A program made the position numbers and the translations under genes. DNA of 64,000 nucleotides from the IMG/VR virus record IMGVR_UViG_3300032243_000867, positions 96,001 to 160,000 of that record; one strand, written 5' to 3'. The notes beneath the pieces are model-generated. The model was not told where the DNA came from. It did no database searches and saw nothing but the letters and a program-made list of their open reading frames with translations. This document shows, piece by piece, positions 1,530-36,106 of this stretch. The DNA comes from a virus. Lineage: Duplodnaviria; Caudoviricetes. Each line of letters opens with the position of its first letter. Position 1 is the stretch's first letter.

Positions 1530-2090
1530 GTGACCCCCATGAAGCCGTCCCGTAGGGCCACTTACGTCAACTACCAAGCCCGTGCCAGCGCCTTCAAGGT
1601 GGGGGACCGGGTGTACCCGATCCTCAAGGGCAACCCGAGTAACGGCGGAACCGTCGTTGCGGTGTGGCCCGCTATCGGGATGGTGGACGTTCAGTACCCC
1701 CACGGGACGGCTCGTGCCCCGGTGGAAGACCTCCTCATCGACCGTGGAACCACCATCGAGTCCGAGGTAGACATCCAATCGGATACCGTTCCGGGGGGCA
1801 CCCACACGGTGCCCGTGTCGGGCGGTCCCGGCCCCGAGAGAACGGACTCCACTCACCGGGTCGCCTCCCGGCACCTCAAGAGAGCCGTGTATTGGGCAGC
1901 GCCCAACCGTCAGTACCGCCCCACGAAGCAAGAGCTCGTCACAAACAAGCTGTGCTGCCCCCGCTGCGACGAGAGCTATCTGAGGAGGTCCACCTACAAG
2001 ATGGAGGAGGGGACTCAGGTCAAGCTGTTCGTATGTCCCTCGTGCCTTTTCATCGTTCGTCGCGACGACGTTGCAGGATTCGGGGAGTGA
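1530..2090 (+). CDS. Hypothetical head protein, SH3/KOW-like N-terminus and C-terminal Zn ribbon
   Basis: FKVGDRVYP...GTVVAVW; RVASRHL motif; CPRC...CPSC. Confidence 0.6.
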   Translation: MTPMKPSRRATYVNYQARASAFKVGDRVYPILKGNPSNGGTVVAVWPAIGMVDVQYPHGTARAPVEDLLIDRGTTIESEVDIQSDTVPGGTHTVPVSGGPGPERTDSTHRVASRHLKRAVYWAAPNRQYRPTKQELVTNKLCCPRCDESYLRRSTYKMEEGTQVKLFVCPSCLFIVRRDDVAGFGE

Positions 2091-2097
2091 TCTGACC

Positions 2098-6562: not shown

Positions 6563-7243
6563 ATGCCTTTGACTGGACAGGCGAGCGGTGGCTGGACGGA
6601 GTCGTCGTCGGCTCTACGGATTCTCCACGTTGGTGTTCGTAACACCGTGGGCGTCCTGACTGACGATGCTTTCACCCAGACCAACCCTCCGATCATCAAG
6701 ACTGCTGGGACGGTTTCGACCTCCCCCGGCGCTCTCACCGAAGTTCTCGGCGTCCTCTCGGGCTCCGTGGCCTTCACCCGCCCGGACGCGGGAAGCAACT
6801 TCATCGGTGGACCGACCAAGACCGCGATGGCCCTCCCGGCCAGCGTGACTCAGGTCCTCCCGCTGGGCTGCTTCATCAACTCGGCGGCGGGCAACCCCTA
6901 CGAGAACCTCCCGGCGGTCGCGTCGGGCAAGGGTCCGTACGTGGCCGCGATGGGCACCTACGGTTCGCGCCTGTTCGAGACGCAGGTTCTCGTGACCACC
7001 AACGGCGGTACGGCGGCGGGCACGGCCCTCACCTACGTCGCTGGTATGCGCCTCGTGGCGAGCCAGAACGGCTACCTCATGCCCAGCGTCGTGTTCGCGG
7101 GCGGTGTTCTCGATCCGGTCGATGCGGGCGCGGCCTTCAACACGCTTGAGGGCGTGAACGGCGGCACGGCGACGACCATCGGCATCCTCAAGCTCGCTCC
7201 CGACTCGGTCCAGAACGAGATCGTGTTCGACCAGCGCATCTGA
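6563..7243 (+). CDS. Putative capsid decoration/cement protein
   Basis: SD aaggag. Gly/Ala/Thr-rich beta protein immediately upstream of MCP, with strongly biased codons. Confidence 0.6.
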   Translation: MPLTGQASGGWTESSSALRILHVGVRNTVGVLTDDAFTQTNPPIIKTAGTVSTSPGALTEVLGVLSGSVAFTRPDAGSNFIGGPTKTAMALPASVTQVLPLGCFINSAAGNPYENLPAVASGKGPYVAAMGTYGSRLFETQVLVTTNGGTAAGTALTYVAGMRLVASQNGYLMPSVVFAGGVLDPVDAGAAFNTLEGVNGGTATTIGILKLAPDSVQNEIVFDQRI

Positions 7244-8222: not shown

Positions 8223-8308
8223 CTCTCCCTCGTCGGGAATCTCTCCCATAGGTTAGATTCTCAAAGTTTCCGATACCGTTCGTTTCTGTGTTAGGTTATG
8301 CTTCAAGC

Positions 8309-10642
8309 ATGACTATGCGGACGTTCGTGTGTAAGGAGTGTGGGGTTTCGTTCCGCACAGATTTGCCGGGTAGGTTCACTACCTGCGATCCGTGCAAAGA
8401 ACGGAAGATTCGAGAGTCTCGTGCGAAGGTTTGTGTTTACCGTCACTGTGGTAAACCGTTCTCCGATGAGTCGTCTCAGAACTCTATGAAGTTCTGTACT
8501 CCCGAGTGCGCTCGACGGGAGAAGATGTTTCGGTCAGGAAAAGCCGGGGACGAGTCCTACTTCCGCATTCCAGGGGGGACCGGGAAACGAAATTGTACGG
8601 CGTGCGAAAAAGTCTTCGTGCCTTCTCCGGGCGAGGAGAAAACAGGCAGATGTGAGGCGTGCAGGGAGTCTCTTCGCAACAAAGAGTGCCTCATTTGCGG
8701 CACTCGATTTCGAGACGATTCTCTCAAGAACACTCGCCGTTACTGTGACGGGCATTCCATCGTAGGAGCCGCTCGCAACGTATACGTTGCTCCGAGCCGG
8801 TCGAAATCTGAGGGGGGGGATTTGAAGTCGCTTACTCCCTTCACCACCACATGGTGGGGGAGGGTGGGGGAGGTTCTTGTTCTTCATCTCCACCCGGAGT
8901 TTTTCGATGCCGTGAAGATGTACGGGAATCTCACGCCTTACGATCTGTACGACCGAGAGCGGGGGAAGATCGCCGTTAAGACGGCTGGTGCGTACTACAC
9001 ATCGCACGGTCGGAAGTGCTGGAAGTTCCAGTTCGGTTCCGACTCTCGTAGGTGCGACGCAGCGTTCATGTTGGGTTTTTCTGAGGATCGGCAACGGCTG
9101 GAACGGGCTTGGTTCCTACCGTTCTCAGAGTTACCGGATCGGTTGAAGGTGATGAGCCCGGATTCCAAGGAGTACATCCCAGACGGGGAGCTACCTCAGA
9201 CCGATGTGGCCGTGATGGATCGAAAGTTTCGGGTCATCCTCCGTGATCTCCCCTCACCCCTCGCATCCCCTACGAAGAGAGTTTCGGATCACACTGTGGT
9301 AGGGCGTCTTGGGGAGAGAGTCTACGCATCTCTTCATCCCCGGTCTGACCACGTTGCCTTGAGGGAGCCTACCTCTCGTTATGACTTCTTGGACGAGGGA
9401 GGGACCAAGGTAAACGTCCGCACTCGTCGCCCCGAGGAGGACGGTTCGTGGAAATTTGCCGTGCCGCATGAGGGGGGGTCCGACGTGTTCTATTTTCTGG
9501 CCTTGAACGCAGAGGGGTCAGAGGCAGAAGCCGCGTACCGAGTTCCCGTACGGGACGTGGAGTCTGGGATCGCCTCGGTTTGCTTGACTGATTCTTGGGT
9601 CGCGTACGCTCAGGGAGGATTCCCGGTGCCGGTTTCGTCTCTGGTGGAGATGTCTGAGTCGGAACAAGATCAGCTTTTTCTCAGTTCCCGAGAGATCGCC
9701 TCATACCCCAAGTCTGAGGTAGTTTCCCGCGCTCTTCGATACCACAGAGAACAAGGTTTTCCGTACCCTGAGATTCCATCTGACGTAGAGCTCGGAGACG
9801 CCCTATCTGCGATTCGTACCTACCAGACCGCAACGGATTTCCCCCCTACAACGGCGGGTTTGTCGGCCCTCTCGGGTTACTTCCCGCATCGGTTCGAGTC
9901 TCGCAATGAAAACTCCGATTTTTCCGCCGTGGGGGCATTCTGGGATGACGAGAGGTTCAAAAGAGCTCTCGCGTACACGGCAAACGGCCCTTCCCCGTCT
10001 TTCACAAGGGGATCGGTTCGCGGGGTCCTCACCGCCTTGAACCGCACGCCGGGTCAGTTCTCTCCCGGCGTAGCGAAGGAGTTGGTACGAAGGTTCTGTC
10101 CGTCTGGGGGGATTGTATTCGATCCGTGCGCTGGTTGGGGCGGGCGTCTGGTAGGGACGCTTGTGGCGGGTGCCCGGTACTACGGTTTGGATGTGAGCGC
10201 CCGTACCGCGAACGCTCTCGGAGTTCTCGGCACACGAGTTCGAGATTATCTCGGTCTCCCGCCCGAAACGGTATCCGTCGCGTGTGGTGATATCGAGAAG
10301 TTTGAAGCCCCCACTGAAGCGTTCGACTTCGCTGTTACCTCCCCGCCGTATTGGGGGAGAGAGCAGTACGATGTAGCAGAGGAACGAACCTACGAAGACT
10401 GGCGGAAATCGTTTCTCGGAAACCTCTTCGAGAAGGTCTACCGCTGTCTCAAGCCCGGTTCCTACTTCGCTTTGAACGTGAGCGATTACCAAGACGGGGG
10501 GAGCACCGTCCCGCTCGTACGGGATTCTAAGGAGGGGGCCTACCGTTCCGGTTTCGTTTTCGATACGGAGCTTCGCATGGAGAAGCACCCGTCATCGAGT
10601 TCTCGTTCTTATGAGCCTATTTTGGTGTTCAAGAAGGTTTGA
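8309..10642 (+). CDS. Fusion of Zn ribbons, two tandem PD-(D/E)XK-like nuclease repeats and an amino (N4/N6) DNA methyltransferase
   Basis: N-terminal CxxC clusters. Two repeats G(R)xGE...YD...K-I/V-x-V-K/R-T...WKF. C-terminal FDPCAGWGGR (motif I) and TSPPY (motif IV). Start could be GTG 8288 or ATG 8309; TATGCT lies 6 nt before the ATG. Confidence 0.75.
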   Translation: MTMRTFVCKECGVSFRTDLPGRFTTCDPCKERKIRESRAKVCVYRHCGKPFSDESSQNSMKFCTPECARREKMFRSGKAGDESYFRIPGGTGKRNCTACEKVFVPSPGEEKTGRCEACRESLRNKECLICGTRFRDDSLKNTRRYCDGHSIVGAARNVYVAPSRSKSEGGDLKSLTPFTTTWWGRVGEVLVLHLHPEFFDAVKMYGNLTPYDLYDRERGKIAVKTAGAYYTSHGRKCWKFQFGSDSRRCDAAFMLGFSEDRQRLERAWFLPFSELPDRLKVMSPDSKEYIPDGELPQTDVAVMDRKFRVILRDLPSPLASPTKRVSDHTVVGRLGERVYASLHPRSDHVALREPTSRYDFLDEGGTKVNVRTRRPEEDGSWKFAVPHEGGSDVFYFLALNAEGSEAEAAYRVPVRDVESGIASVCLTDSWVAYAQGGFPVPVSSLVEMSESEQDQLFLSSREIASYPKSEVVSRALRYHREQGFPYPEIPSDVELGDALSAIRTYQTATDFPPTTAGLSALSGYFPHRFESRNENSDFSAVGAFWDDERFKRALAYTANGPSPSFTRGSVRGVLTALNRTPGQFSPGVAKELVRRFCPSGGIVFDPCAGWGGRLVGTLVAGARYYGLDVSARTANALGVLGTRVRDYLGLPPETVSVACGDIEKFEAPTEAFDFAVTSPPYWGREQYDVAEERTYEDWRKSFLGNLFEKVYRCLKPGSYFALNVSDYQDGGSTVPLVRDSKEGAYRSGFVFDTELRMEKHPSSSSRSYEPILVFKKV

Positions 10643-20844: not shown

Positions 20845-23337
20845 ATGGCCTCGATTCAGTACAACAAGATCCTCGCAGTTCCCTCTTCGGGCCTCAAGAA
20901 CCCGGCGGCTCCCAAGGCCGTTGACAGCCTCGCCCTGTCTCTCGCTCAGACGAGCATTCAACTCGGCGCGAGCGGCTTTTTCAAGCTGCTCGACAGCGCG
21001 GGCGCGGACCTCCTCAACGCCCAGAACTCGGCCATCTCGTTCGCCCCGGACGCGAGCTTCTCGCAGGACCTCACGGTCAGCGGCGACACCATCCTCGCGG
21101 CCCTCTCGGCCACGAACGCCTCGTTCTCGGGCACGCTCGGCGTGACCGGGGCGTCCACCCTCGGCGTGCTCTCGGCGGGCGCGACGGACGTGGACAGCCT
21201 CTCGGTGGACGTGAACGCCTCGGTGGGCGGCGAGCTCACGGTCAGCGGCGACTCGAACCTCGCGGACCTGTACGCGGCGGCGGCTTCGTTCTCGGGTGAC
21301 GTGTCCGTCTCGGGCAACCTGACGGTCAACGGCAAGGTCACCACGATCAACTCGGACCAGATCATGGTCCACGATCCGATCATGGTGCTGGCCGACGGCA
21401 ACACGGCGGACACCTTCGACATCGGTTTCGTGGGCAAGCGCAAGGTCGGCGCGGCCTTCGAGAACGTGTCGTTCTTCTACGACCAGTCGGCGGGCGAGTT
21501 CGCCGTCGCCAACGTCGGCACGACCTACGGTCAGGACGGCAGCAACAACTACCAGTCCCTCACCGTGGCGTCCTACATGGACCTCCACATCGCGGACCTC
21601 GCTGCGGCCAGCGCGGACTTCTCGGCGAACGTGTCGATCTCGGGCACCCTCTCGGCGGGCAACACCACCGTTGCCGACCTGACGGCTGAGGACGGCACGT
21701 TCTCGGGCAACATCGCAGCGGTCAACGCGACCCTCTCGGGCAACATCTCCGCGGTGGACGGCACGTTCTCGGGCGACATCTCGGCGGACGACATCTCGGC
21801 GGCGACGGCGACCCTCTCGGGTGCCCTCTCGGCGGCTTCGGCCTCGATCTCTGGCGCGGCCACCATCGGCTCTACGCTCGACGTGACGGGTGCCCTCTCG
21901 GCGGCTTCGGCCAGCATCACGGGCGCGATGTCTTCGGGCTCCGTCTCGACGGGGAACCTCACCGCCTCGGGCTCGGCCACCGTTGCCGGTACGCTCTCGG
22001 CGGGCGCGACGGACGTGGACAGCCTCTCGGTGGACGGCAACGCCTCGGTGGGTGGGAACATCACCGCCGTGGACGCCACCCTCTCGGGCGACCTCGCTGC
22101 GGTTGACGCGACCCTCTCGGGCGACCTCGCCGCCGTAGGCGGCACGTTCTCGGGCAACATCGCCGCGGTTGACGCCACCCTGTCGGGTGACCTCGCGGCG
22201 GTTGACGCCACCCTGTCGGGCAACATCGCTGCGGTTGACGCCACCCTGTCGGGTGACCTCGCTGCGGTTGACGGCACGTTCTCGGGCAACATCGCGGCTG
22301 TGGACGCGACCCTCTCGGGTGACCTCTCGGCTATGGACGCGGCCCTCTCGGGCAACGCCACCATCGCGGGTACGCTCGGCGTGACGGGAGCCCTCTCGGG
22401 CTCTTCGGCCTCGTTCAGCGCCAACATCGCGGCGGTTGACGCGACCCTCTCGGGCGACCTCGCGGCGGTTGACGCGACCCTCTCGGGCGACCTCACGGTC
22501 GCGGGTGCGGCGGACCTCGACGCCCTCACCGCTTCGGGCGCGGTTCACTTCACGGCGACTGACGATGCCCTCTCCATCACCATCCCCGCGATGGCGGTCA
22601 CCGAGAACTACGCTCTCGAAGTCGAGGGCGGCGTCCACATGGACGGCCACCTCTACCTCGCCAAAACGGGCGGCTCGCTCGACCTGAGCAGTTCTCCCGT
22701 CACCCCCGACTTCATGGTCGATGGCAAGTCGGTCTTCGCCGCGCGTCTGCACTCGGGCTCGGCGTCGAACCCCGACTTCATGGTGGTTGGTCACGCCCGG
22801 TTCAACTCGGGCTTCGTGGTGGACAGCGGGGCCGCTGCCTCGATCACCGTCGCCAACGTGTCGGGCGACGCCATCTCGTTCTCGACGGGCACGGACGGCC
22901 ACATCCACCTCGACGCTGCCAAGATCCTCCGTCTCTCGGCGGCTCAGGGCATCGCGACGAACCACACCGCGAACGCCTCGGGCGCGGTGGCGGCGAACCT
23001 CGCCGTTTCCATCAACGCCACGGGGGACTTCGTCGCCGTGCGCGCCAACGAGAAGAACGCCCTCGTCCTCGGCGTGTCGCTCGCCAGCATCGCTGGTTCG
23101 ACCTCGGCCAAGGGCAAGGTTGCCGAGTTCGGCAAGGTGGACATCGCCGTCGAAGGCGGGGCCAGCATCGCCATTGGCGACCTTCTGTACCTGTCGGCCA
23201 GCGAGGCGGGCAAGGTCACGAACGTCGTCCCGGTTGACGCGGACAGCACCGCGTACCTCATGGGCAAGGCCCTCCAGGCCCCCGTCGCGGGCAAGGTCAG
23301 CATCGCGCTGCACCGCCAGTTCCTCTACAACAACTGA
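20845..23337 (+). CDS. Fibre-like virion protein with 11-aa repeats and C-terminal DUF2190/cement-like domain
   Basis: Ala/Ser/Gly/Asp-rich beta-repeat shaft. C-terminus LGVSL...VAEFG.V...IGDLLYLS..AGKVT...MGKAL. Confidence 0.65.
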   Translation: MASIQYNKILAVPSSGLKNPAAPKAVDSLALSLAQTSIQLGASGFFKLLDSAGADLLNAQNSAISFAPDASFSQDLTVSGDTILAALSATNASFSGTLGVTGASTLGVLSAGATDVDSLSVDVNASVGGELTVSGDSNLADLYAAAASFSGDVSVSGNLTVNGKVTTINSDQIMVHDPIMVLADGNTADTFDIGFVGKRKVGAAFENVSFFYDQSAGEFAVANVGTTYGQDGSNNYQSLTVASYMDLHIADLAAASADFSANVSISGTLSAGNTTVADLTAEDGTFSGNIAAVNATLSGNISAVDGTFSGDISADDISAATATLSGALSAASASISGAATIGSTLDVTGALSAASASITGAMSSGSVSTGNLTASGSATVAGTLSAGATDVDSLSVDGNASVGGNITAVDATLSGDLAAVDATLSGDLAAVGGTFSGNIAAVDATLSGDLAAVDATLSGNIAAVDATLSGDLAAVDGTFSGNIAAVDATLSGDLSAMDAALSGNATIAGTLGVTGALSGSSASFSANIAAVDATLSGDLAAVDATLSGDLTVAGAADLDALTASGAVHFTATDDALSITIPAMAVTENYALEVEGGVHMDGHLYLAKTGGSLDLSSSPVTPDFMVDGKSVFAARLHSGSASNPDFMVVGHARFNSGFVVDSGAAASITVANVSGDAISFSTGTDGHIHLDAAKILRLSAAQGIATNHTANASGAVAANLAVSINATGDFVAVRANEKNALVLGVSLASIAGSTSAKGKVAEFGKVDIAVEGGASIAIGDLLYLSASEAGKVTNVVPVDADSTAYLMGKALQAPVAGKVSIALHRQFLYNN
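22054..22350 (+). repeat. 33-nt coding repeat x9 (G[N/D][I/L]AAVDATLS)
   Basis: Regular 33-nt period, with additional copies near 21700 and 22420-22490. Confidence 0.9.
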
Positions 23338-24133: not shown

Positions 24134-24604
24134 GTGCCCCTCGTCATCATCCCCCGTAACCCGTCTACGTCTACCTCGACGAACGTCGTCATCGACGGGG
24201 CCGTGTTCACGCCCCCCGGCGAACCCCCTATCTCGGGCGGCACGGGAACCCTTCGGTATCTGGGGATGGCCGTCGGTGCCCTCATGGACCTCGCAACGGG
24301 ACAACTCAACCTGTTCCCCGTGGGCTCCCGCACGGAAGACAACCCGCTGATGTTCTACGGGTTCCTCACGGGCATGGGCGGGTCGGGAATCATCGTCGCC
24401 ACGGGGCGGGGTTCCATCGTCACCCCGCTGTCCAAGGACGAAGGACCCCTTGAACCGGGGAAAGACGTGTTTCTGTCTCTCGTACCCGGCTACGTCACCC
24501 AAGGGTACGAGATGGAAACCGAAGGATCGGCGTACCTGCGGATCGGATACGCCCTCGACGGAACCCGCATCGTCATCGCCACCGACACCCGCATTCAGTT
24601 CTGA
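24134..24604 (+). CDS. Hypothetical virion protein (cement-like beta fold)
   Basis: Contains LEPGKDVFLSLVPGYVT, similar in pattern to the fibre C-terminus. Confidence 0.5.
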   Translation: MPLVIIPRNPSTSTSTNVVIDGAVFTPPGEPPISGGTGTLRYLGMAVGALMDLATGQLNLFPVGSRTEDNPLMFYGFLTGMGGSGIIVATGRGSIVTPLSKDEGPLEPGKDVFLSLVPGYVTQGYEMETEGSAYLRIGYALDGTRIVIATDTRIQF

Positions 24605-24613
24605 GAGACTGCC

Positions 24614-24931
24614 ATGACCCCCAGCCTGCCGATGGAAGGGCGAACGACGCCCGTCCCCTCAGCGCACGAAACGCGACTCCCCTACGACGTGCTGCAAGAC
24701 CGCCGCGAAGCCCTCTTGGTAGCGGCCCTCGCAGTCGTCGCGGTCGTCGCGGTCGTCGCCCTTGCGTTGCACTTCCGCCACCCCACGTCCACCCGCGCGC
24801 CCACCACGGAGCACCCCTGCCCTACCTGCCCCGCCGTGCCCCCGTGCCCTGCGGTGCCCCCGTGCCCCGCGTGCCCCGCGTGCCCCGCGTGCCCGACGTG
24901 CCCGCCCGAAAACACCGCAGAGCCCCTGTAG
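24614..24931 (+). CDS. Membrane protein with CPxC/CPA repeats
   Basis: One TM helix, then CPTCPAVPPCPAVPPCPACPACPACPTCP. Confidence 0.55.
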   Translation: MTPSLPMEGRTTPVPSAHETRLPYDVLQDRREALLVAALAVVAVVAVVALALHFRHPTSTRAPTTEHPCPTCPAVPPCPAVPPCPACPACPACPTCPPENTAEPL

Positions 24932-24940
24932 GAGGAACCC

Positions 24941-25711
24941 ATGTCAGTAGTCTTCAACCCCGGACAGACCATCGGGCAGGGTGATCTAGACATCTTCCTG
25001 ACCAACGCGGGCGGGTTTCCTGCCAATGCGGCGTCGATAACCTACGCCCTGTACTACGTCTCCCCCGGACCGCCTGAGACGGAGGTGCTCATCGGGTCCG
25101 CCACCCGCACGCCCGTCAACCCCACGGTGGGCGAGTACTACGCCTCCCTCACCGTGCCCGCGATGGCGACGCCCGGTGACTATCGCATCCGGTGGACGTT
25201 CCAGCAGTTCGCGGGTTCGCCCCCGCAACAAGTGGTGATGGAGTGGGGCGTCGTCTCGGCAGGGCTCATCGCCGTGGGTGCGTACAGCACCCTCACCCAA
25301 GGGATGATCGACAAGTTGCGGTTGCTCCTCCGAGACCAGAACCCGGACAAGTTCTACCACTTCCGGCCCCCGGAGGCCGAGGGGAACATCGGCGCGTACA
25401 ACCGCGTCTTCGGTTACGTCTGGCAGGACAACGAGCTCTTCGAGTACCTAGAGCGCGGGATGGACTGGTGGAACATGATGCCGCCCAACACGGGCGGCTT
25501 CACCCTCGACCAGATGGTCCAGCAGAAGCCCGAATGGCGCACGGCGGTCCTCTGGGACGCCATCACCCACGCTTGCTTCGCCCTCGCGTGCAATTGGGTC
25601 GTTGACGAGTTCTCGGTGAGTTCGGTTACACTACTTCACCTATCCCTGCCCGATGGTAGGAAGGTCGAGGTACCCATTGGCGAGCTCTACGACATCTGCA
25701 CCGACGAGTGA
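24941..25711 (+). CDS. N-half of fractured putative neck/head-tail protein (224-aa extein plus 32-aa IntN)
   Basis: SD ggagga. The extein ends NWVVDEF, followed by the intein block A-like SVSSVTLLHLSLPDGRKVEVPIGELY and a stop. Confidence 0.8.
   Translation: MSVVFNPGQTIGQGDLDIFLTNAGGFPANAASITYALYYVSPGPPETEVLIGSATRTPVNPTVGEYYASLTVPAMATPGDYRIRWTFQQFAGSPPQQVVMEWGVVSAGLIAVGAYSTLTQGMIDKLRLLLRDQNPDKFYHFRPPEAEGNIGAYNRVFGYVWQDNELFEYLERGMDWWNMMPPNTGGFTLDQMVQQKPEWRTAVLWDAITHACFALACNWVVDEFSVSSVTLLHLSLPDGRKVEVPIGELYDICTDE
25613..25708 (+). mobile_element. Split intein N-fragment (IntN, 32 aa, Ser1)
   Basis: S-V-x3-T...DG...PIGELY matches the intein N-terminal block A pattern. Confidence 0.8.
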
Positions 25712-26657
25712 CCTGTCTCCCCGTCAAGTGTCCGTTCGGTACGGGTTCAACTCCCGCGCCGTGATGGATCTTGTTTCCGATGGAACCCTCGTGTTGAGGG
25801 GCCGGAAGGTCACCGCCGCAAGCCTATCCGCCCTCGTCGAAGGGGTGCATTACGTTCGGTGTCGGGAGTGCGGGGCGTTCGCCGCGATGATCCACTCGGC
25901 ACATCTGAAGGCGTGTTCCGGCTTGGCCTCTCTGGGCGAGTACCTAGCGAAGCATCCCGGTGCGCCCGTGATGTCGGAGCGGAACAAGGCCCGGAAAGCC
26001 AAGACCCCCTCACAGCGGGAAGCTCAGTCGCAGAAGCTCAAGGCCCGCTTCCAGACCGCCGAAGGTGATGCAACCCGCCGACAAATCGCGGACTCCTCGC
26101 GACGGATGCAAGCGTCGGAGTCCGGGCAACGTTGCAAGGATCACCTCCGCAAGATGAACTCGGACCCCGCCGTGAAAGCACAACGTAGGGCCGACACCAA
26201 AGCCCGATGGGAGTCGGGTGCCCTTCGTGAAGCCGTCGAAGGGTGGCACCGGGAACACCGGGACGAGTCCCTGTCGTCCGCCCTTCAAGCTAGGCGCTAC
26301 ATTCAACGGAAACGCACGGGCCTCCACCTCAAGTTCAAGGCCCTCATGGAGAGCAACGGGCTCCACGGGTTCGTCACCGAGTACGAGGTCGGGTACCACG
26401 CCGTGGACGAAACCCGCCCCGACTTGAAGATCGCAGTCGAAATAGACGGCTGCTACTGGCACTCTTGCCCCCAGTGCGGGCTCACCGGACCCCGGAGCAC
26501 CCTCCGCACGGACAAGACCAAGACCGCCTACTTGACCAATCGTGGGTGGACGGTGCTCCGCCTCTGGGAGCACGACATCAACCGCGACCCTATGGGGTGC
26601 CTAGATCGTATTCGTCAACTCGTCGCGGACAAGGAACGTGAGAACCATGTTGGATGA
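25653..26657 (+). CDS. Free-standing Vsr/DUF559-like endonuclease between the split-intein halves
   Basis: C-terminal EYEVG...VDE...IAVEIDGCYWH...D..K..YL..RGWTVLRLWEHD. N-terminal Ros/MucR-like Zn finger (YVRCRECG...HLK). Start uncertain (25653 or 25764). Confidence 0.85.
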   Translation: MVGRSRYPLASSTTSAPTSDLSPRQVSVRYGFNSRAVMDLVSDGTLVLRGRKVTAASLSALVEGVHYVRCRECGAFAAMIHSAHLKACSGLASLGEYLAKHPGAPVMSERNKARKAKTPSQREAQSQKLKARFQTAEGDATRRQIADSSRRMQASESGQRCKDHLRKMNSDPAVKAQRRADTKARWESGALREAVEGWHREHRDESLSSALQARRYIQRKRTGLHLKFKALMESNGLHGFVTEYEVGYHAVDETRPDLKIAVEIDGCYWHSCPQCGLTGPRSTLRTDKTKTAYLTNRGWTVLRLWEHDINRDPMGCLDRIRQLVADKERENHVG

Positions 26658-27054
26658 AGCAACCCGAGCCGCAATCCGTGAAGCCTACCGGGCTGGAAAA
26701 CTCAAGGTCGAAGCCGTAGACCCGGCGACGGGGGCAGCTTCTCTTCAGACCGTCACCGCCGTCCTGCGGCACCGCACCCCCCACAAAGACATGGTCCGGG
26801 TGACGCTGACGGACGGTCGATGGGTGGAATGCACCGTGGACCACAGCCTCTTCACCATGGCCGGGGAAGGCGTCACGCCCGTTCCCGCCGGGGAGCTCCA
26901 CGCCGGGGCCTTCATCGCCACGGTCGAGGGCGGGGTAGCCAAGGGTGTCGAGGTGGCCTCCGTCGTGTCCCTACCCCCCGAGGAACACACCTACGACCTG
27001 TCCGTGCCGGGACCCGAGAACTTCGTCCTCGCCAACGGAATCCTCGCCCACAAC
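26647..27054 (+). mobile_element. Split intein C-fragment (IntC, 136 aa, +1 Ser)
   Basis: Canonical HN|S splice junction at 27054/27055. Confidence 0.9.
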
Positions 27055-27276
27055 TCGTACTCCATCGGTGGCGTCTCGTTGGACATCGAAAAGGCCAGCA
27101 AGTACGAGAGCCTCAAGCAAAACGCTGAGTCCCAGTTCGACAAGGCGGCGGAAGCCAAGGCCCGCACCGTCAAGTTCATCCGGGGCATTCAGCAGCCCAA
27201 GTACGGGGTGGGTATTCGCAGTTCCTTCGGACCAAATGTAGGTAGAGGTGTGCTAAGTCCCCGTAATTTCCTTTGA
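26647..27276 (+). CDS. C-half of fractured gene (136-aa IntC plus 73-aa C-extein)
   Basis: SD aaggaa and ATG 26647. Block B TVDHSLF, block F TYDLSVPGPENFV, block G ILAHN, then SYSIGGVSLD. Confidence 0.9.
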   Translation: MLDEATRAAIREAYRAGKLKVEAVDPATGAASLQTVTAVLRHRTPHKDMVRVTLTDGRWVECTVDHSLFTMAGEGVTPVPAGELHAGAFIATVEGGVAKGVEVASVVSLPPEEHTYDLSVPGPENFVLANGILAHNSYSIGGVSLDIEKASKYESLKQNAESQFDKAAEAKARTVKFIRGIQQPKYGVGIRSSFGPNVGRGVLSPRNFL

Positions 27277-27358
27277 ACCTCGTGTAGGCAGCGGGGTATT
27301 GACTCCTCGAACCGGAGTCCCACCGCCCCCGCCCTCAATAAAAAGTACGGTGCAGGGG

Positions 27359-27386
27359 TTGACTTCCCCAATACGGGGCTTACGAT
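27359..27386 (+). promoter_or_regulatory. Sigma70-like promoter, likely leaderless transcript
   Basis: TTGACT-16 nt-TACGAT with the ATG 7 nt downstream and no SD. Confidence 0.55.
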
Positions 27387-27393
27387 TCGGGTC

Positions 27394-28875
27394 ATGGAAT
27401 ACCGACCTGAAGCCCCGTGTCCCGCCTGTCAACAATCCGTCCCCCTCAAGGGTCTCGCGAAGCACGCCTCGGGGTGCCCAAAATGGGGCACGCTGGGTGT
27501 TCCCGCGTCCCTGTTCAACTGGGACGGGTACTTCAAGCGCGGCCCCTATGCGGACGGGTTGACGGAGGGCACCGACTACGTTCGGTGTCAGGAGTGCCCG
27601 GACGGGGCGCGGGGGGATCGCGGCCTCCGTCTGATGGATCACGTCAAGAAGGTTCACGGCTTGACGAAAGAGACGTACCTAGAGCGGCATCCGGGTGCCC
27701 TTCTCAACGTCCCCGCCACCTTAGAGCGCCGCAAGGCTACGGTGTCGGAGCGGTACGACGGGGCGACCAATGTGTTCCAAGTGCCCGACGTGAAGGATCG
27801 CATTCGGGACGTGATGGCCGAGAAGTACGGTGGGACCGGGGTTGGGTCTCCCGAGCTACGGGCGAAGATTGAGCAGACCAACGAGGCGCGGTACGGGAGT
27901 GCCAACCCGTTCGGGTCCGACGAGGTGCAGGAGAAGATTCGGGCGACGTGGCGGGAGAAGTACCAGTGCGACAACCCTAACCAGTCTCCTGAGATCATGG
28001 CGAAGCGTATTGCGACGAACCGCAAGACGCACGGTGCGGATCACTACGTCGAGACCGACGATTTCAAGGGGAAGTTCAAGGCGGCGAGCCAAGAGCGGTT
28101 CAAGGCGGACCATCCGATGCAATCGGAAGAGGGTAAGCAGCTTTGTTTTGATGGGGTACAAGCAAACCACGGGGTTGATACCGTATTCAGTTTGCCTGAA
28201 GTCCAGAAGCGGGCCTACGAGTCCAACCTTGCAAACCACGGCGGGAAGCACTCGCAGCAGTGCCCCGAGGTGCTGGAGAAGGCGCGGGAGACGTGGCGGG
28301 AGAAGTACAACACGGACAACCCGTCGAGGGTCGAGGCCGTCAAGCAGAAGATCAAGGACGTGTGGGAGGGGAAGTACGGGGTTCCGTTTCCGCCGCAGAG
28401 CTTGTGGCTGAACCAGACGCACTCGTCTCCCAACGGGCTGGAGCGGAAGGTTCAAGCGATGCTCCCCGTGTACGTCCTCTACACGGGGGACAAGACGTAC
28501 AACGTGAGGTTGCCCGGTACTTCACGGGACAAGTACCCCGACTTCGTGGTGCTGGCCCCGGATCAGTTGCTGGCCTACCAATCTGGGACGCCCTTGAAGT
28601 CCCTTCGGATCGAGGCTGTCTGCGAGGCGTTTGGTTCGTACTGGCACGGCCCGGAAATGACGGGGGTGTCCCGCGACGACCACTACAACGAGGTCATGGA
28701 CTACTATGCCCGGTGCGGACTTCGGTGCTTGATCTTGTGGGAGCACGACGTAGACGGGCAACCGGGCGAGGTGGCCGATCAGCTTCGGCGGTTCCTGTCC
28801 GACGTGGCGGGGGACGTAACACCTTCTGGCGGCGGGGGTGACCCGTCTGTTCTGGATTTTTTTCGAGGGGCTTGA
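27394..28875 (+). CDS. Free-standing endonuclease: Zn fingers, EKYG-type repeats, Vsr-like nuclease
   Basis: DYVRCQEC...HVKKVHG; repeated (K/R)I..T..E(K/R)YG..N; C-terminal YPDF...EAFGSYWHG...LILWEHD. Confidence 0.8.
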   Translation: MEYRPEAPCPACQQSVPLKGLAKHASGCPKWGTLGVPASLFNWDGYFKRGPYADGLTEGTDYVRCQECPDGARGDRGLRLMDHVKKVHGLTKETYLERHPGALLNVPATLERRKATVSERYDGATNVFQVPDVKDRIRDVMAEKYGGTGVGSPELRAKIEQTNEARYGSANPFGSDEVQEKIRATWREKYQCDNPNQSPEIMAKRIATNRKTHGADHYVETDDFKGKFKAASQERFKADHPMQSEEGKQLCFDGVQANHGVDTVFSLPEVQKRAYESNLANHGGKHSQQCPEVLEKARETWREKYNTDNPSRVEAVKQKIKDVWEGKYGVPFPPQSLWLNQTHSSPNGLERKVQAMLPVYVLYTGDKTYNVRLPGTSRDKYPDFVVLAPDQLLAYQSGTPLKSLRIEAVCEAFGSYWHGPEMTGVSRDDHYNEVMDYYARCGLRCLILWEHDVDGQPGEVADQLRRFLSDVAGDVTPSGGGGDPSVLDFFRGA

Positions 28876-28878
28876 GAC

Positions 28879-29451
28879 ATGAGTTCATTCATCCGTCCGT
28901 CACCGATTCGCGCGGTTCACTTCGCCAAGCAGAACGTCACGGAGACACTTCGGGAGGAGTGGGACGAGGGGGGGGTGATGTACCAAGGGCAGATCCCATC
29001 CGGCGTCAAGGTGGGCGACCCGTTGGTGGTGCGGCCCAGTGAAAGGGTGACTTGGTGGTTGGTGATCGAGGGCAGCGAGAGCGATCTTCGGGCTCGTCGG
29101 TGTCGCGCCCGGATCACCTTGATCCGTGACCGGGACGAGGTGGAGTACCTTCAAGGGGTGGTTGAGACGGCCCTGTTGCGGTTTGTTGCCCACGAGTTCC
29201 CGTCGTACCGGGTGACGGTCGAACGGGACCGGGCTCCGCAGCGCGGAGTCACCTTGTTCGCGGTAGGCCCGGAGAAGCCCCTGCACTACGGGTCTGGGGG
29301 GAAGCTATCAAAGGGGTGGACGAACCTCGTTCTCGGGGACATCCCGCACGAGAGGGACGCGAAGCACCCGTACGTCAGTTCGGTCAAGGTGGCCGACGCG
29401 GGCACGGAGGGCGAGCTTCTCAAGTACCGGATTCGTGCCGAGATCATCTAG
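28879..29451 (+). CDS. Hypothetical protein
   Basis: 190-aa ORF filling the space between genes. No motif recognised. Confidence 0.5.
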   Translation: MSSFIRPSPIRAVHFAKQNVTETLREEWDEGGVMYQGQIPSGVKVGDPLVVRPSERVTWWLVIEGSESDLRARRCRARITLIRDRDEVEYLQGVVETALLRFVAHEFPSYRVTVERDRAPQRGVTLFAVGPEKPLHYGSGGKLSKGWTNLVLGDIPHERDAKHPYVSSVKVADAGTEGELLKYRIRAEII

Positions 29452-29472
29452 TAGAGCGTGCCTCGTCCTGCG

Positions 29473-29536
29473 AGGTGAAGACCGACCCCGAGGGTGTGGG
29501 CGATGGTCCAACCCTGTACGCCCACGGGCGTAACGT
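29473..29536 (+). promoter_or_regulatory. Duplicated upstream element, copy 1 (22-nt box plus GGGCGTAACGT)
   Basis: aggtgaagaccgaccccgaggg-31 nt-gggcgtaacgt-6 nt-ATG. Confidence 0.7.
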
Positions 29537-30847: not shown

Positions 30848-32044
30848 ATGAATCAGCCGCACCCCCTCGCGAAGCTCAACAACAAGAACGGTCTCGGATG
30901 GTGGGATTGGGTCCGCCCCGAGGACGGCGTTCGTCAGATCGTCCTCACGGGAGAGGGTTGTCTGTCCGACGCCCATACCGAATCCCTCGCCGGGGAGTTC
31001 CTTACGGACTCTCACTACGAGGTGCTTCTACGCCCCGAGGACGGAGACGTGGACGTGTACAAGCCCCGGGTTGTCGGGGCGTTGGATATGCTCATGGGCG
31101 AGGGGGAGAGCGCGGGAGAGCTTTCCGAGTCTCGTCTCCTCCTTTCTATCCGTCGCAAGAGGTTCCCGGCGGGTCTGTGCTCCGTTGCCCGTGATTCTCT
31201 TCGCGCCGCAGCCTTTCCGTCGCGCAACCGAGGTGCGGCAGCGGGGAAGGCAGACCCGGAGAAGATGAAGCGTGATTCGTCGTTGGTTCTCTCCCGGGGG
31301 AACACGGCGAAATACTACACCAAGGACGGATTGCTCTCGAACACCACCGAGAGCAACTGGGTGAATTCTGGGATCGTAGGGTACTTCAACGCCACGTCCC
31401 GGAACCCCTACTGCCGTCAGACCGCGTACACCCGCGACAACGCGGACAAGTTCGCGGCGGCGATGCCCTTCCTCGAAGAAGTCAACCGGGCGTTTCGAGA
31501 CGTGTCCCCGGCGCGGTGGGGGGCTCAGAACCGTTACGTCTCGGAGGAGACGGACCTCCGCGAGAAGGGCTGGCTTCTCGGGGACACGGTGTTCTCGACG
31601 GTCACCGTCAACAAGAACTACCGCACGGGTTGCCACCAAGACGCCGGGGACTACCACCCCGGGTTCGGCAACCTCACCGTTTTCGAGGGTTCCGCCCACC
31701 GCTACGCGGGCGGGTACACGGTGTTCCCGAAGTTCCGCTGCGCCGTGGATCTCCGCGAGGGGGACTTCATCGGGATGGACGTTCACGAGTGGCACGGGAA
31801 CACGGAGATGACGGCGGCGGTCCCGGGAGAGGATGACTGGGAGCGGGTTTCCCTCGTCTGCTACGTTCGGGTGGACATGACCCGGTGCGGCACCCGCTCT
31901 GAAGAAGAGCGGAAGCGAGAGGAGTGGACCAAGACCTGGAGGAACCCGGTCGAGCAGCACGCCTTCCGTCTCGAAGAGGATCGACATCAGCAAGAGGGTC
32001 TCGCCAACGCCATGGGCGTATTGTTCTCTTCGGAGGAAGAATGA
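30848..32044 (+). CDS. TET/JBP-family 2OG-Fe(II) dioxygenase
   Basis: SRNRGAAAG, SGIVGYF...PYCRQTAY, FSTVTVNKNYRTGCHQDAGD (HxD), HEWHGNT (distal H) and RVSLVCY (RxS). Confidence 0.9.
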   Translation: MNQPHPLAKLNNKNGLGWWDWVRPEDGVRQIVLTGEGCLSDAHTESLAGEFLTDSHYEVLLRPEDGDVDVYKPRVVGALDMLMGEGESAGELSESRLLLSIRRKRFPAGLCSVARDSLRAAAFPSRNRGAAAGKADPEKMKRDSSLVLSRGNTAKYYTKDGLLSNTTESNWVNSGIVGYFNATSRNPYCRQTAYTRDNADKFAAAMPFLEEVNRAFRDVSPARWGAQNRYVSEETDLREKGWLLGDTVFSTVTVNKNYRTGCHQDAGDYHPGFGNLTVFEGSAHRYAGGYTVFPKFRCAVDLREGDFIGMDVHEWHGNTEMTAAVPGEDDWERVSLVCYVRVDMTRCGTRSEEERKREEWTKTWRNPVEQHAFRLEEDRHQQEGLANAMGVLFSSEEE

Positions 32045-33796: not shown

Positions 33797-34610
33797 GAGT
33801 CTTCTCATCGAAGGAACACCCGTCGAACGGGTAACTGATCGCGTCTCCGTGAAGCGGGAGGATATGTGCTCCCCCTTCCCTGGACCCTCTTTCAGTAAGA
33901 TCCGGGGCGTGCTGAAGCACATCGAGAAGCGCCCGGAAACCGAAATCGGGGTTCTGGACACCTACCACTCCAAAGCGGGTTGGGCCGTGTCCTACGTCTC
34001 CCACCACCTGGGTAAGAAGGCTCTGGACTTTTACCCCCGATACAAAGGGGACGGACCCGAGGTGCGGGATCAGCAGAAGATGGCGCGGGAGTATGGCGCG
34101 GAGCTTTTCGAGCTTCCGGCGGGACGTAGCGCGATTCTCTATCACCAAGCGCGTAAGGAGTGCGTACGGCGCGAAGCGTACCTCATGCCCAACGCCCTGA
34201 AGCTGCCGGAAACCGTGGGGGAGTGTGCCGAGGAGGTTCTCCGTACCCCAGACCTTCACAAGTACGCGAATCTAGTGATCAGCGTCTCGTCGGGGACGAT
34301 AGCGTCAGGGGTGCTTCTTGGTTTCGCGAAAGCCAAGATTTACCCGACTGTCTGGCTCCACGCCGGGTACTCGCGTTCCGAATCCGAGCTCCGCCGATAC
34401 ATCACGGCGAAGGTTCCGAAGTTGTCTTTCTGGCCTTCAGAAGTGAACCTCATCGACGAGGGCTACGGATACAAGGACGCCGCGAAGATCGACGACCCGC
34501 CCCCCTTCCCCTGCAACCCCTACTACGACCTGAAGGCGTGGAAGTGGCTGAAGAGCGGGGCGGAAGATCGAATGACGGGCGAAATTTTGTTCTGGAACGT
34601 CGGGGCGTAA
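33795..34610 (+). CDS. PLP-dependent enzyme (fold type II), putative modified-base decarboxylase
   Basis: VKREDM...SKIRG (Schiff-base Lys), SVSSGTIASG and FPCNPYYDLKAW...FWNVG. Confidence 0.8.
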   Translation: MSLLIEGTPVERVTDRVSVKREDMCSPFPGPSFSKIRGVLKHIEKRPETEIGVLDTYHSKAGWAVSYVSHHLGKKALDFYPRYKGDGPEVRDQQKMAREYGAELFELPAGRSAILYHQARKECVRREAYLMPNALKLPETVGECAEEVLRTPDLHKYANLVISVSSGTIASGVLLGFAKAKIYPTVWLHAGYSRSESELRRYITAKVPKLSFWPSEVNLIDEGYGYKDAAKIDDPPPFPCNPYYDLKAWKWLKSGAEDRMTGEILFWNVGA

Positions 34611-34642
34611 GTCCCCAAAACTCTGAAACTGAAAGGCACGCG

Positions 34643-36106
34643 ATGGATCTCGACGCATGGCTCGAAGAAGACCTCACCTCGGAGGAGACGAAACAAGCCT
34701 ACCAGTATTTCATGAAGCCCGAGCCCCGCGACATCGCCGGGGACTTGGAGACGGACCCGGAGACGGGCATCCGTTCCCGGCTCATGCGTATCGGAATGCT
34801 TCGGGGCATGAAGGACGAGGACAAGAAGACCTATCGGGTGTATCTTGACCCGATTCCCCACATCCGCATCGACGAGGGCAAGCCTCTTCAGGCTTGGTAC
34901 AAATCGAAGCACGAAGAGCCCGGTGTCCGCAACCGCCCGTGCTTTACCGAAGCGATCCTCACCCAGCCGTACGGAGGGTTCTGCGCGGTGGGTTGTGCTT
35001 TCTGTTACATCAATAGCGGGTTCAAGGGCTACCGGGGATCGGGCCTTATCTCCGTTCCGATGGGGTACGGGAAGCAGGTCCGGGAGTCCCTGAAGAAGAT
35101 GAAGACCTCGGCAGCGGGGTACTTCAGCTCTTTCACCGACCCGTTCCTTCCCTTGGAGGACGTTTACCACAACACGCAGGAAGGCGCTCAGGCGTTCGTG
35201 GATGAGGGGCTCCCCATCTTCTTCCTCTCCCGCATCAAATACCCTTCCTGGGCGTTCGATCTTCTGCGGCAGAATCCGTATAGCTACGCTCAGAAGAGCA
35301 TCAACTGCGCGAACCAGGAAGACTGGAAGCGCCTGTCCCCCGGCGCGGCATCCCTCGCTACTCACATGGAGGACATCCGCGAGCTTCGCAAGGCGGGCAT
35401 CTACGTCAGCATCCAAGTCAATCCCATCATCCCCGGAGTCGTGAATCATGACGACGTAGAGCAGGTGTTCGAGATGCTTGCGGAAGCCGGGGCGAACCAC
35501 GTCATCGTGAAGTTCGTCGAGGCCAGCTACTCTTGGGCTCCCGCGATGGCGGAGAAGATCCGTTTCCGCTTCGGGAAAGAGCGCGGAAGTAAGTTCGAGA
35601 GCCTCTTCACCGAGAACATCGGGGGTCAGCGAACCATCGTGGAGGAATACCGGATGGAAGGTCACCGCCGATACCAGAAGGCGGCTACCCGTCTCGGGAT
35701 GACGTACGCGACCTGCTACGAGTACCGGATGGAGCGGGATGCCGCCGGAAGGGTCACGAACAAGACGGGCGTGTCCGTGGGAAAAGAATTCCTCACGGCG
35801 GATCAGTGCCACGGACACAAGGTGCCGATGTTCACCCGGTCCGATCAGAAGGAGCCCTTCCGCGAAGTTTCACACTGCCCGCCGACGGGATGCCTCTCCT
35901 GTTCGGACGACAACGGCGGGAAGGCCCGCTGCGGTTCCGAGTTGTACGGCGCGGCAGCGGCGCTTCGCCTACCGGACTTGAAGGTCGGGGTGTACGATGA
36001 CGTTCCCGCTTCGCGGAAGCGTTCGCTCCCCGTGATCAACACCCCGGCCCCCGCTCCCCTCCCCACGACCATGTCCGAAATCCTCGGGCTGAGCGGAGAA
36101 GAGTAG
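34643..36106 (+). CDS. Radical SAM enzyme
   Basis: CAVGCAFC (CxxxCxxC). SD gaaagg before ATG 34643. Confidence 0.9.
   Translation: MDLDAWLEEDLTSEETKQAYQYFMKPEPRDIAGDLETDPETGIRSRLMRIGMLRGMKDEDKKTYRVYLDPIPHIRIDEGKPLQAWYKSKHEEPGVRNRPCFTEAILTQPYGGFCAVGCAFCYINSGFKGYRGSGLISVPMGYGKQVRESLKKMKTSAAGYFSSFTDPFLPLEDVYHNTQEGAQAFVDEGLPIFFLSRIKYPSWAFDLLRQNPYSYAQKSINCANQEDWKRLSPGAASLATHMEDIRELRKAGIYVSIQVNPIIPGVVNHDDVEQVFEMLAEAGANHVIVKFVEASYSWAPAMAEKIRFRFGKERGSKFESLFTENIGGQRTIVEEYRMEGHRRYQKAATRLGMTYATCYEYRMERDAAGRVTNKTGVSVGKEFLTADQCHGHKVPMFTRSDQKEPFREVSHCPPTGCLSCSDDNGGKARCGSELYGAAAALRLPDLKVGVYDDVPASRKRSLPVINTPAPAPLPTTMSEILGLSGEE

Follow-up and report, generated by a model that had tools for sequence, protein, structure and literature searches.

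A Probable Head-to-Tail Adaptor Gene of a Huge Freshwater Phage, Fractured by an Atypically Split Ser1/Ser+1 Intein and a Vsr-like Nuclease Gene

Introduction

How a virion protein can be produced from a gene that is divided between two open reading frames (ORFs), with a nuclease gene lying between them, is the question raised by a locus at positions 24,941 to 27,276 of a 64,000-nucleotide (nt) stretch of phage DNA. This whole stretch, referred to here as the window, corresponds to bases 96001–160000 of the 265,895-bp IMG/VR record IMGVR_UViG_3300032243_000867, which comes from freshwater and has a G+C content of ~63%; since a record of this length is estimated to be 59% complete (CheckV), its source is a huge (jumbo) phage. 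A megablast search of 12 kb around the locus against a phage collection gave no match. An earlier note, made from the sequence alone, had read the locus as a fractured virion gene in which the N-terminal fragment (IntN) and the C-terminal fragment (IntC) of an atypically split intein are separated by the gene of a Vsr-like endonuclease. The follow-up analysis makes it highly likely that this is a genuine fractured gene, encoding a probable head-to-tail adaptor together with a split mini-intein that has serine at both splice junctions (Ser1/Ser+1) and a Vsr-like homing nuclease, and that its two halves are to be expected to trans-splice.

Organization of the Fractured Locus

As shown in Table 1, three overlapping plus-strand ORFs, each in a different frame, make up the locus, and the layout of a fractured gene is present, with the host protein's N-terminal portion and IntN, a free-standing nuclease ORF, and IntC with the host protein's C-terminal portion all on one strand. 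The first ORF (N-ORF, 24941..25711) encodes 256 amino acids (aa), of which 224 belong to the N-extein and 32 to an IntN that begins with serine and is followed by TGA, as the earlier note had described; the N-extein comprises an Ig-like beta sandwich (residues 1–104) and the first part of a helical adaptor-like domain, and ends in NWVVDEF. The nuclease frame is open from 25653 (ATG). That a Vsr-like nuclease occupies a second frame was borne out, but its position simply 3' of the N-ORF was not, since the nuclease ORF overlaps the N-ORF; for the same reason, the short non-coding spacer looked for before the nuclease ORF is not present. The third ORF, in the third frame, is separately initiated as had been proposed: its ATG is kept in relatives and overlaps the nuclease TGA as ATGTTGGATGA, as it also does in the related locus L005, while an alternative start at GTG 26638 would make an IntC of 139 aa. 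The Pfam Intein_splicing model is found on this ORF, which reads ILAHN-SYSIGGVSL at its splice junction; the C-extein begins with Ser+1 (SYSIGGVSL...) and contains a beta hairpin that is conserved, as well as the host protein's C-terminal tail. A promoter and terminator scan of 24500–29500 gave counts at the shuffled expectation and none inside the insert on the plus strand. Because the three ORFs overlap, they are probably co-transcribed and translationally coupled.

Table 1. Coordinates of the fractured gene, of the neighbouring endonuclease gene and of related fractured loci at a second insertion site.
Feature	Position	Strand	Evidence
N-extein, host residues 1–224	24941..25612	+	96–97% identity to P0001–P0003; AF2 model
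IntN, 32 aa + TGA (25709–25711)	25613..25711	+	aligned to start of same-site contiguous inteins
Nuclease gene, 326 aa from TTG 25677	25677..26657	+	DUF559 Pfam, fold, orthologs
IntC, 136 aa from ATG 26647	26647..27054	+	PF14890, alignment of relatives
C-extein, 73 aa + stop (27274–27276)	27055..27276	+	colinear with residues 225–297 of intact alleles
Separate free-standing endonuclease gene, 493 aa	27394..28875	+	PF24308, 120.5 bits
Second-site fractured loci	L010:2619–5380; L011:3258–5440; L012 (LR745208.1):1627–4001		

The Host Protein and Its Intact Alleles

A homolog search with the 224-aa N-extein as query returned 800 homologs, most of them 297–299 aa long and uninterrupted. The joined exteins (224 + 73) give 297 aa with the predicted junction VVDEF-SYSIGGVSL, and their alignment shows that uninterrupted homologs join at the predicted point, so that the length and junction proposed for the trans-spliced protein agree with them except that the homologs have Asp rather than Ser at +1. 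The closest uninterrupted allele, P0003 (locus L002; 297 aa), is 96% identical across the N-extein and shares 282 of 297 residues with the joined exteins; its junction reads NWVVDEF-DYSIGGVSL, i.e., DEF directly followed by DYS where the window has DEF, the intein and SYS, and the two junctions differ in one residue, Asp225, which is replaced by Ser, the +1 nucleophile. Residue 225 is occupied by Asp in 25 and by Ser in nine of 52 intein-free homologs, and Ser is therefore tolerated there. In the same 52 proteins F224 is invariant and Y226, S227, G230, S232 and L233 are nearly invariant or invariant, which places the intein in the most conserved motif of the host protein. The DNA of the window and of P0003/L002 is near-identical up to the junction, and mostly silent differences are clustered in the ~40 nt 3' of it, a pattern that would be the expected trace of homing co-conversion or of target-site immunity. 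The spliced-junction peptide is predicted to be ...VVDEF-SYSIGGVSLDIEK, in a product of ~33 kDa. The 266-kb record holds one copy of the host gene and no second one.

The AlphaFold model of the host protein, built from 52 homologs (predicted local distance difference test, pLDDT, 80.6), consists of the Ig-like sandwich at 1–104, a helical domain at 117–260 and a beta hairpin at 224–235, the first residue of which is the intein site. The best structural matches of the helical domain (117–280) are phage adaptor or neck chains, with Z of 7.5–10.2 over 95–134 aligned residues, a score that is non-decisive for helical domains. Of the 50 matches listed, at least 14 to the helical domain, all five best among them, are adaptor or neck chains, drawn from different phage portal–tail structures (including Pa223, cyanophage A4, GP4, KHP30, SU10, T4 gp13/gp14, B2, Moo19, VP1, HRP29, 812, phiCD508, DEV and PhiM1), and the best adaptor matches reach Z 9.3–10.2. 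At the sequence level, PHROG 17327, "head-tail connector protein", is matched by nine of the 52 homologs (best expectation value, E, 8.6e-6) and weakly by the N-ORF of the window (E 0.0048). In addition, a 29% identical homolog, gp319 of the cultured 309-kb Tunturiibacter phage Tunturi_5, is annotated as a head-tail connector, an annotation that probably derives from PHROG 17327 itself. The model and these matches, with the consistency of the fold matches as the main argument, indicate that the host is probably a head-to-tail adaptor, that is, a portal-binding neck protein, in line with the structural neck protein proposed in the earlier note. Tail genes (tape measure and hub) lie 28–37 kb downstream in the window.

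The best surviving alternative, which is nevertheless unlikely, accepts that the gene is fractured and trans-spliced and takes its product to be another virion or non-virion protein that shares the helical hairpin fold. It draws on the fact that Z ~10 lies within the range that can arise for helical domains, and on the Foldseek search of the whole model against the PDB, which returned mostly matches to the N-terminal Ig-like part and one adaptor at E 4e-3 and is not usable alone; matches of the model in BFVD are mostly unnamed. Pfam gave no family for the window's host-protein pieces or the 52 homologs, a profile of the host family found no match among PDB sequences, and the neighbouring genes are of no known function or unrelated to virion structure, such as a Tet/JBP oxygenase. 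Set against this are the repeated appearance of adaptor and neck chains among the structural matches, T4 gp13/gp14 included, the independent PHROG connector match over the same region, and a length of ~300 aa, a single copy and strong conservation across huge phages, which fit a core virion protein.

The Split Intein

The IntN, SVSSVTLL...PIGELYDICTDE, carries blocks A and N2 only, and its Ser1 codon (25613–25615) directly follows F224, where the intact allele has D225. IntC carries block B as Thr63-V-D-His66 (26833–26844), block F as YDLSVPGPENF and block G as ILAHN, followed by the +1 Ser; Arg41-His42, upstream of block B, resembles motif NX. The Intein_splicing family (PF14890) is found on the third ORF with 51.7 bits (cut-off 35.8). 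In an alignment of 15 inteins from the same site, 11 contiguous and four split (the window and three split relatives), all 15 keep Ser1, the block B His, the block F Asp, (A/S)HN and a +1 Ser or Thr; the block B Thr is kept in 14 (P0127 has Ser), the NX-like His in all 15, and an Arg or Lys before it in 12. By these motifs, the window intein is of class 1 and of the Ser1/Ser+1 type. One cysteine is present in IntN (..DIC..) and one in IntC (..VEC..), so that, as judged from its residues, the intein is Cys-independent at its junctions, where the nucleophiles are Ser, yet not Cys-free.

Contiguous mini-inteins of 157–196 aa occupy the same site in P0122, P0125, P0133, P0135, P0139, P0149, P0163, P0170 and others, and carry a variable linker where the split alleles have a stop, a nuclease gene and a start. 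The window IntN aligns to the first 32–40 residues of these inteins, and the IntN of split allele L007 is ~75% identical to the start of contiguous P0125. The alignment maps the break to a linker of highly variable length just after the first helix (...ELYDIC...), and the IntN ends seven residues past the GELYD helix motif. The split is thus placed by alignment at the atypical S2 position, not S1, in the scheme of PMC13014065; the rare N-proximal split of the earlier note stands. Among solved inteins, archaeal mini-inteins come nearest, with E 1.7e-9 or weaker, so the window intein is not close to any characterised intein.

Structure prediction of the complex (ESMFold2-based), with IntC plus six extein residues against N-ORF residues 219–256, gave 0.74 in three runs, whereas the best control gave 0.02; the mark set for this score is reached by 51 of 78 solved complexes and by two of 108 mismatched pairs. 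This supports, at the level of a model, that IntN and IntC bind each other. Meanwhile, the ratio of nonsynonymous to synonymous substitution rates (dN/dS), which speaks to protein-sequence constraint only, is 0.19 for IntC, 0.21–0.23 for the nuclease and 0.06–0.17 for the exteins when the window is compared with L008 and L009, values by which IntC and the nuclease are under purifying selection. The dS of IntN is 0.04, against 0.23–0.84 in the other segments, as fits the overlap of IntN with the nuclease reading frame.

The Nuclease Between the Halves

From its N-terminus, the protein is made up of a helix-turn-helix-like part, then a C-x2-C...H-x3-C zinc finger and a region of helical repeats, and it ends in a Vsr-like/DUF559 nuclease. 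DUF559 (PF04480) is found at its C-terminus with 26.6 bits (cut-off 20.6), and the Vsr model PF03852 scores 13.7, under its cut-off of 27; endonuclease and homing-endonuclease families of PHROG are also matched. Six orthologs share the zinc finger, the helical middle and the C-terminal GCYWHSCPQC...DK...WEH, in which GCYWH and WEH are invariant. In the AlphaFold model, which has a mean pLDDT of 70.5 and modest confidence in the nuclease part, the top four PDB folds are the catalytic domain of I-Bth0305I (3r3p_A/B) and E. coli Vsr (1cw0, 1vsr), with probabilities of 0.99–1.00, E of 6e-3 to 5e-2 and template modelling (TM) scores of 0.54–0.72 by target; the DUF559 structure 3hrl ranks soon after. 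The E-values of 6e-3 and above are weak because only a third of the model aligns, and the fold ranking is specific despite them. A phmmer search against the PDB returned only a weak DUF559 match (3hrl, E 0.017), so the Vsr-like call, which agrees with the earlier reading of the middle ORF, rests on Pfam and fold.

The start of the nuclease probably differs from that in L005: there it is an ATG inside IntN, and the same codon is ACG in the window. TTG 25677, which lies 35 nt inside IntN, is the likely start here, as judged from a GAGG 6 nt upstream and from its being the start called in L009.

Protein Trans-Splicing and the Proposed Mechanism

Taken together, the layout, the intact alleles and the intein motifs suggest that this probable neck gene very probably depends on protein trans-splicing, and virion assembly would then need it too. 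In the proposed mechanism, a class-1 Ser1/Ser+1 mini-intein would have inserted directly after the invariant Phe224 of a 297-aa virion protein, and a Vsr-like homing nuclease gene would have entered the variable loop past the first helix of the intein, with the result that the intein and host gene now lie in two ORFs. The 32-aa IntN and the 136-aa IntC would associate, fold as a HINT domain and trans-splice the halves into a 297-aa adaptor with Ser in place of Asp at residue 225; during co-infection, the nuclease would cut intein-free alleles near the codons of DEF/DYS, and the whole cassette would spread.

Several points weigh against this reading. The adaptor assignment is of moderate strength, given Z values and sequence matches of the kind described above; part of the complex score may stem from solved inteins already known to the model, since inteins are well represented among solved structures; the record, at ~59% completeness, leaves room for a second, intact adaptor gene outside it; the mutation of the usual nuclease ATG to ACG makes the start uncertain, and expression could be poor; and no sequencing run holding the locus is recorded as RNA.

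The incompleteness of the record and the lost ATG, a possible first sign of decay, also lend something to a very unlikely alternative, in which the halves are made without splicing, either as a module for non-covalent dimerisation only or as a decaying pseudogene whose role is taken by another adaptor protein. A role in binding only would be expected to relax the nucleophiles, but Ser1, the NX-like His, the Thr and His of block B, the block F Asp, the His-Asn pair and Ser+1 are kept although the split inteins differ by up to 50–65%. Furthermore, at a second insertion site of the same host gene, only a 47-aa remnant of the nuclease is left in locus L011, although both intein halves persist, so that the halves there are maintained for the sake of the host protein. 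Trans-splicing of the two halves accordingly remains the preferred account of the locus.

Recurrence of the Layout

The same three-ORF layout is found in five other loci, whose N-exteins are 97% (L008), 90% (L009), 73% (L005), 70% (L006) and 63% (L007) identical to that of the window; the IntC start of L006 is at 6728 (corrected), and the gene neighbourhoods differ among the more distant loci, L005–L007. Contigs from three other studies cover the locus with the same layout; for instance, a 7.7-kb lake-water contig of 2018 holds all three ORFs at ~90% nucleotide identity, and a 6-kb freshwater contig of 2017 covers the ORFs up to 27065. The probable source run yields an 85.7-kb contig identical to the window. 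Small indels in the contigs of the other studies fall in compensating pairs, and independent contigs with the same layout and such indels mean that the layout is due neither to chance nor to assembly error. The single continuous frame that the earlier note had named as contrary evidence was not found. Hence, the idea that one continuous gene carries two spurious frameshifts, for which the origin of the window in a metagenome assembly might be cited, is refuted and has a negligible probability, since a conserved nuclease ORF of ~1 kb lies between the halves and the same three frames with paired compensating indels recur in six loci and the contigs of three further studies. A possible intein-free variant in run X2 (contig joint 25206>27058) was rejected, as it has only 35 letters on one side and its ends lie off the intein borders.

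States of the Site in the Protein Family and a Second Insertion Site

Among 270 proteins of the family, the site is empty in 161, 34 are N-halves with an IntN of 29–55 aa, 14 carry a contiguous intein and nine are C-halves. The element is patchy on the host-gene tree, a FastTree tree with many weak branches, where its state changes 29 times and shuffling gives a mean of 33.7 and a minimum of 30; by this measure, the elements appear to be spread almost at random. The nearest relatives of the window include both split alleles and an empty one.

The second insertion site, LRDN/xPDRNY at about residue 134, likewise lies in an invariant motif. Its inteins have Cys1 and are contiguous in P0123 and P0134; in its split inteins the break also falls after the first helix, the IntN has 33 aa, and a TnsA-like nuclease gene (300–347 aa) lies between the halves (Table 1). 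One of these split alleles is in LR745208.1, a public 485-kb huge-phage record without annotation. Combinations occur as well: a split intein at the residue-134 site is found with a contiguous intein at the site after Phe224 in P0140 and P0147, and a contiguous intein at the residue-134 site with a split one after Phe224 in P0136, P0146 and P0150. At both sites, the nuclease gene lies in the loop after the first intein helix, not at the canonical position of an endonuclease domain.

A further endonuclease gene, also free-standing, separates the fractured gene from the phage gene that follows (Table 1). Its product combines DUF7487 repeats with a zinc finger and a C-terminus that is Vsr-like, and has zinc-finger and nuclease motifs in common with the nuclease borne by the intein. 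L005, L007, L008 and L012 carry the gene and L006, L009, L003 and L004 lack it, a pattern showing that it varies independently of the intein. Judged by gene content, selfish nuclease genes thus have a hot spot at the adaptor locus, with what appear to be three different ones.

Relatives therefore display empty sites, contiguous mini-inteins, fractured genes at two sites with two nuclease families, and a split allele whose nuclease has decayed. It is with somewhat better than even confidence that this adaptor-gene family is taken to record the full life cycle of a split gene up to its fixation in an essential virion protein, with the first-helix loop as a second natural entry point that makes atypically split inteins, and to be a source of dozens of Ser1/Ser+1 inteins with N-fragments of ~30 aa. 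If the host is an adaptor, trans-splicing would be required to make a core part of the virion that is present in 12 copies at the portal; two intein sites of this structural gene have been taken over by selfish elements, and a third nuclease gene follows just downstream. Many diverged natural Ser1/Ser(Thr)+1 inteins with N-fragments of 29–41 aa are available in the family, and matched contiguous and split inteins at one site amount to an experiment by nature on how a split comes about and at what cost. Protein engineers currently lack natural Ser1/Ser+1 inteins with N-fragments of ~30 aa, and those of this family would have practical value for intein engineering.

Other Features of the Phage Genome

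A 918-aa ORF at 2071–4827 (+) matches PHROG "head maturation protease" in its N-terminal part (E 2.3e-8, residues 118–198) and is interrupted from ~196 to ~623 by a contiguous intein with a LAGLIDADG domain (Pfam Hom_end_hint, LAGLIDADG_3 and Intein_splicing); it is a second intein-bearing morphogenesis gene of the phage. Two more Intein_splicing matches lie outside the window, at G000:C1:53098–54027 and 176401–176502, in open frames of 1022 and 929 aa, so that together with the inteins of the window the genome carries at least four.

Just upstream of the fractured gene, a small ORF (24614–24931, +) encodes a hydrophobic segment and a Cys/Pro-rich tail, the latter from a 9-nt/27-nt tandem repeat at 24814–24903 with ~8.6 copies; in contigs of relatives, 286 nt are missing here or 1320 other letters are found instead, which marks a hypervariable spot. 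Further upstream, an 830-aa protein (20845–23337, +) has bactofilin-like beta-helix repeats and weak tail-fibre PHROG matches, and a homolog of it lies upstream of the adaptor gene in L003 and L008. Meanwhile, genes that probably serve DNA modification and repair are clustered close to the locus (window 30848–32044, 8288–10642 and 34160–36106): one encodes a Tet/JBP dioxygenase, another a DNA methylase with a CGNR zinc finger, and a third a protein that matches PHROG "DNA repair photolyase" (E 1e-206), to which the relatives L003/L004 add ADDT-family and dCMP-deaminase-like genes; this gene content suggests hypermodified DNA in this phage group.

Comparison with Known Systems

It has been reported that the hosts of fractured genes are DNA synthesis and repair enzymes and terminase, that the Vsr-like nuclease family, first described in that work, is present in half of the fractured loci, and that these loci, carried mainly by phages, have a hairpin-containing, non-coding stretch of 27–51 nt ahead of the nuclease gene (Dassa et al. 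2009, PMC2677866). This account agrees with the earlier note, which had taken such genes as known mostly from replication enzymes and terminase. The window locus resembles them in its two host ORFs on the same strand, the IntN at the end of the first, the nuclease between, the in-frame IntC and the Vsr-like nuclease family; it differs in that its host is a probable structural neck protein and in that its nuclease ORF overlaps both intein halves, with no 27–51-nt spacer. The Gp41-1, Gp41-8 and NrdJ-1 inteins of the Dassa set are listed as cysteine-dependent (PMC13014065).

The nuclease itself shares with I-Bth0305I (3r3p) and E. coli Vsr (1cw0) a C-(F/Y)-W-H motif and kept Zn-ligand-like Cys residues. 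Its N-terminal DNA-binding parts differ from theirs, and the sequence similarity is too low for phmmer; moreover, I-Bth0305I lies in a group I intron, whereas the window nuclease lies between intein halves.

Natural atypically split inteins have an IntN of 15–37 aa, with VidaL and PolB16 split at S1 (PMC13014065). According to the summary of them in the same source, the AceL TerL and GOS TerL inteins (Thiel 2014; Bachmann & Mootz 2015) are split after the first alpha helix (S2) and have an IntN of ~25–37 aa and a long IntC. Compared by that description, the window intein shares with them the S2 split, the short IntN, the long IntC and a phage or metagenome source; unlike them (Cys1, or Ser1 with Cys+1, in the large terminase), it has Ser1/Ser+1, an NX-like His and another host protein. 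The PolB16 OarG intein (Pasch et al. 2023) is atypically split, uses Ser1/Ser+1 oxyester chemistry and has an [R/K]-His motif NX upstream of block B, a motif reported as a signature of Ser1/Ser(Thr)+1 inteins (PMC10189870). The window intein is likewise naturally atypically split, with Ser1/Ser+1 and an [R/K]-His upstream of block B, matched by sequence position. Similarly, wild-type PolB16 has two non-conserved Cys, which were mutated for a fully Cys-free variant, and the window intein also has two. Unlike the window intein, which is split at S2 with an IntN of 32 aa, PolB16 is split after beta strand 2 (S1, IntN 15 aa) and its host is a B-family DNA polymerase. No natural cysteine-less atypically split intein other than PolB16 is said to be known, and natural candidates are described as lacking (PMC13014065).

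The contiguous mini-inteins at the same site (P0122, P0125, P0133 and P0135) have in common with the window intein the insertion after Phe224, Ser1, Ser or Thr at +1 and all blocks; they are single polypeptides of 157–196 aa, whereas the window intein is encoded in two ORFs. In the literature searched, which was not exhaustive, no phage adaptor protein was found to be described as carrying an intein. It can be seen from these comparisons that the arrangement itself has been known since 2009, and that what is new is the host protein, the combination of an S2 split with Ser1/Ser+1 chemistry, and the overlapping ORFs.

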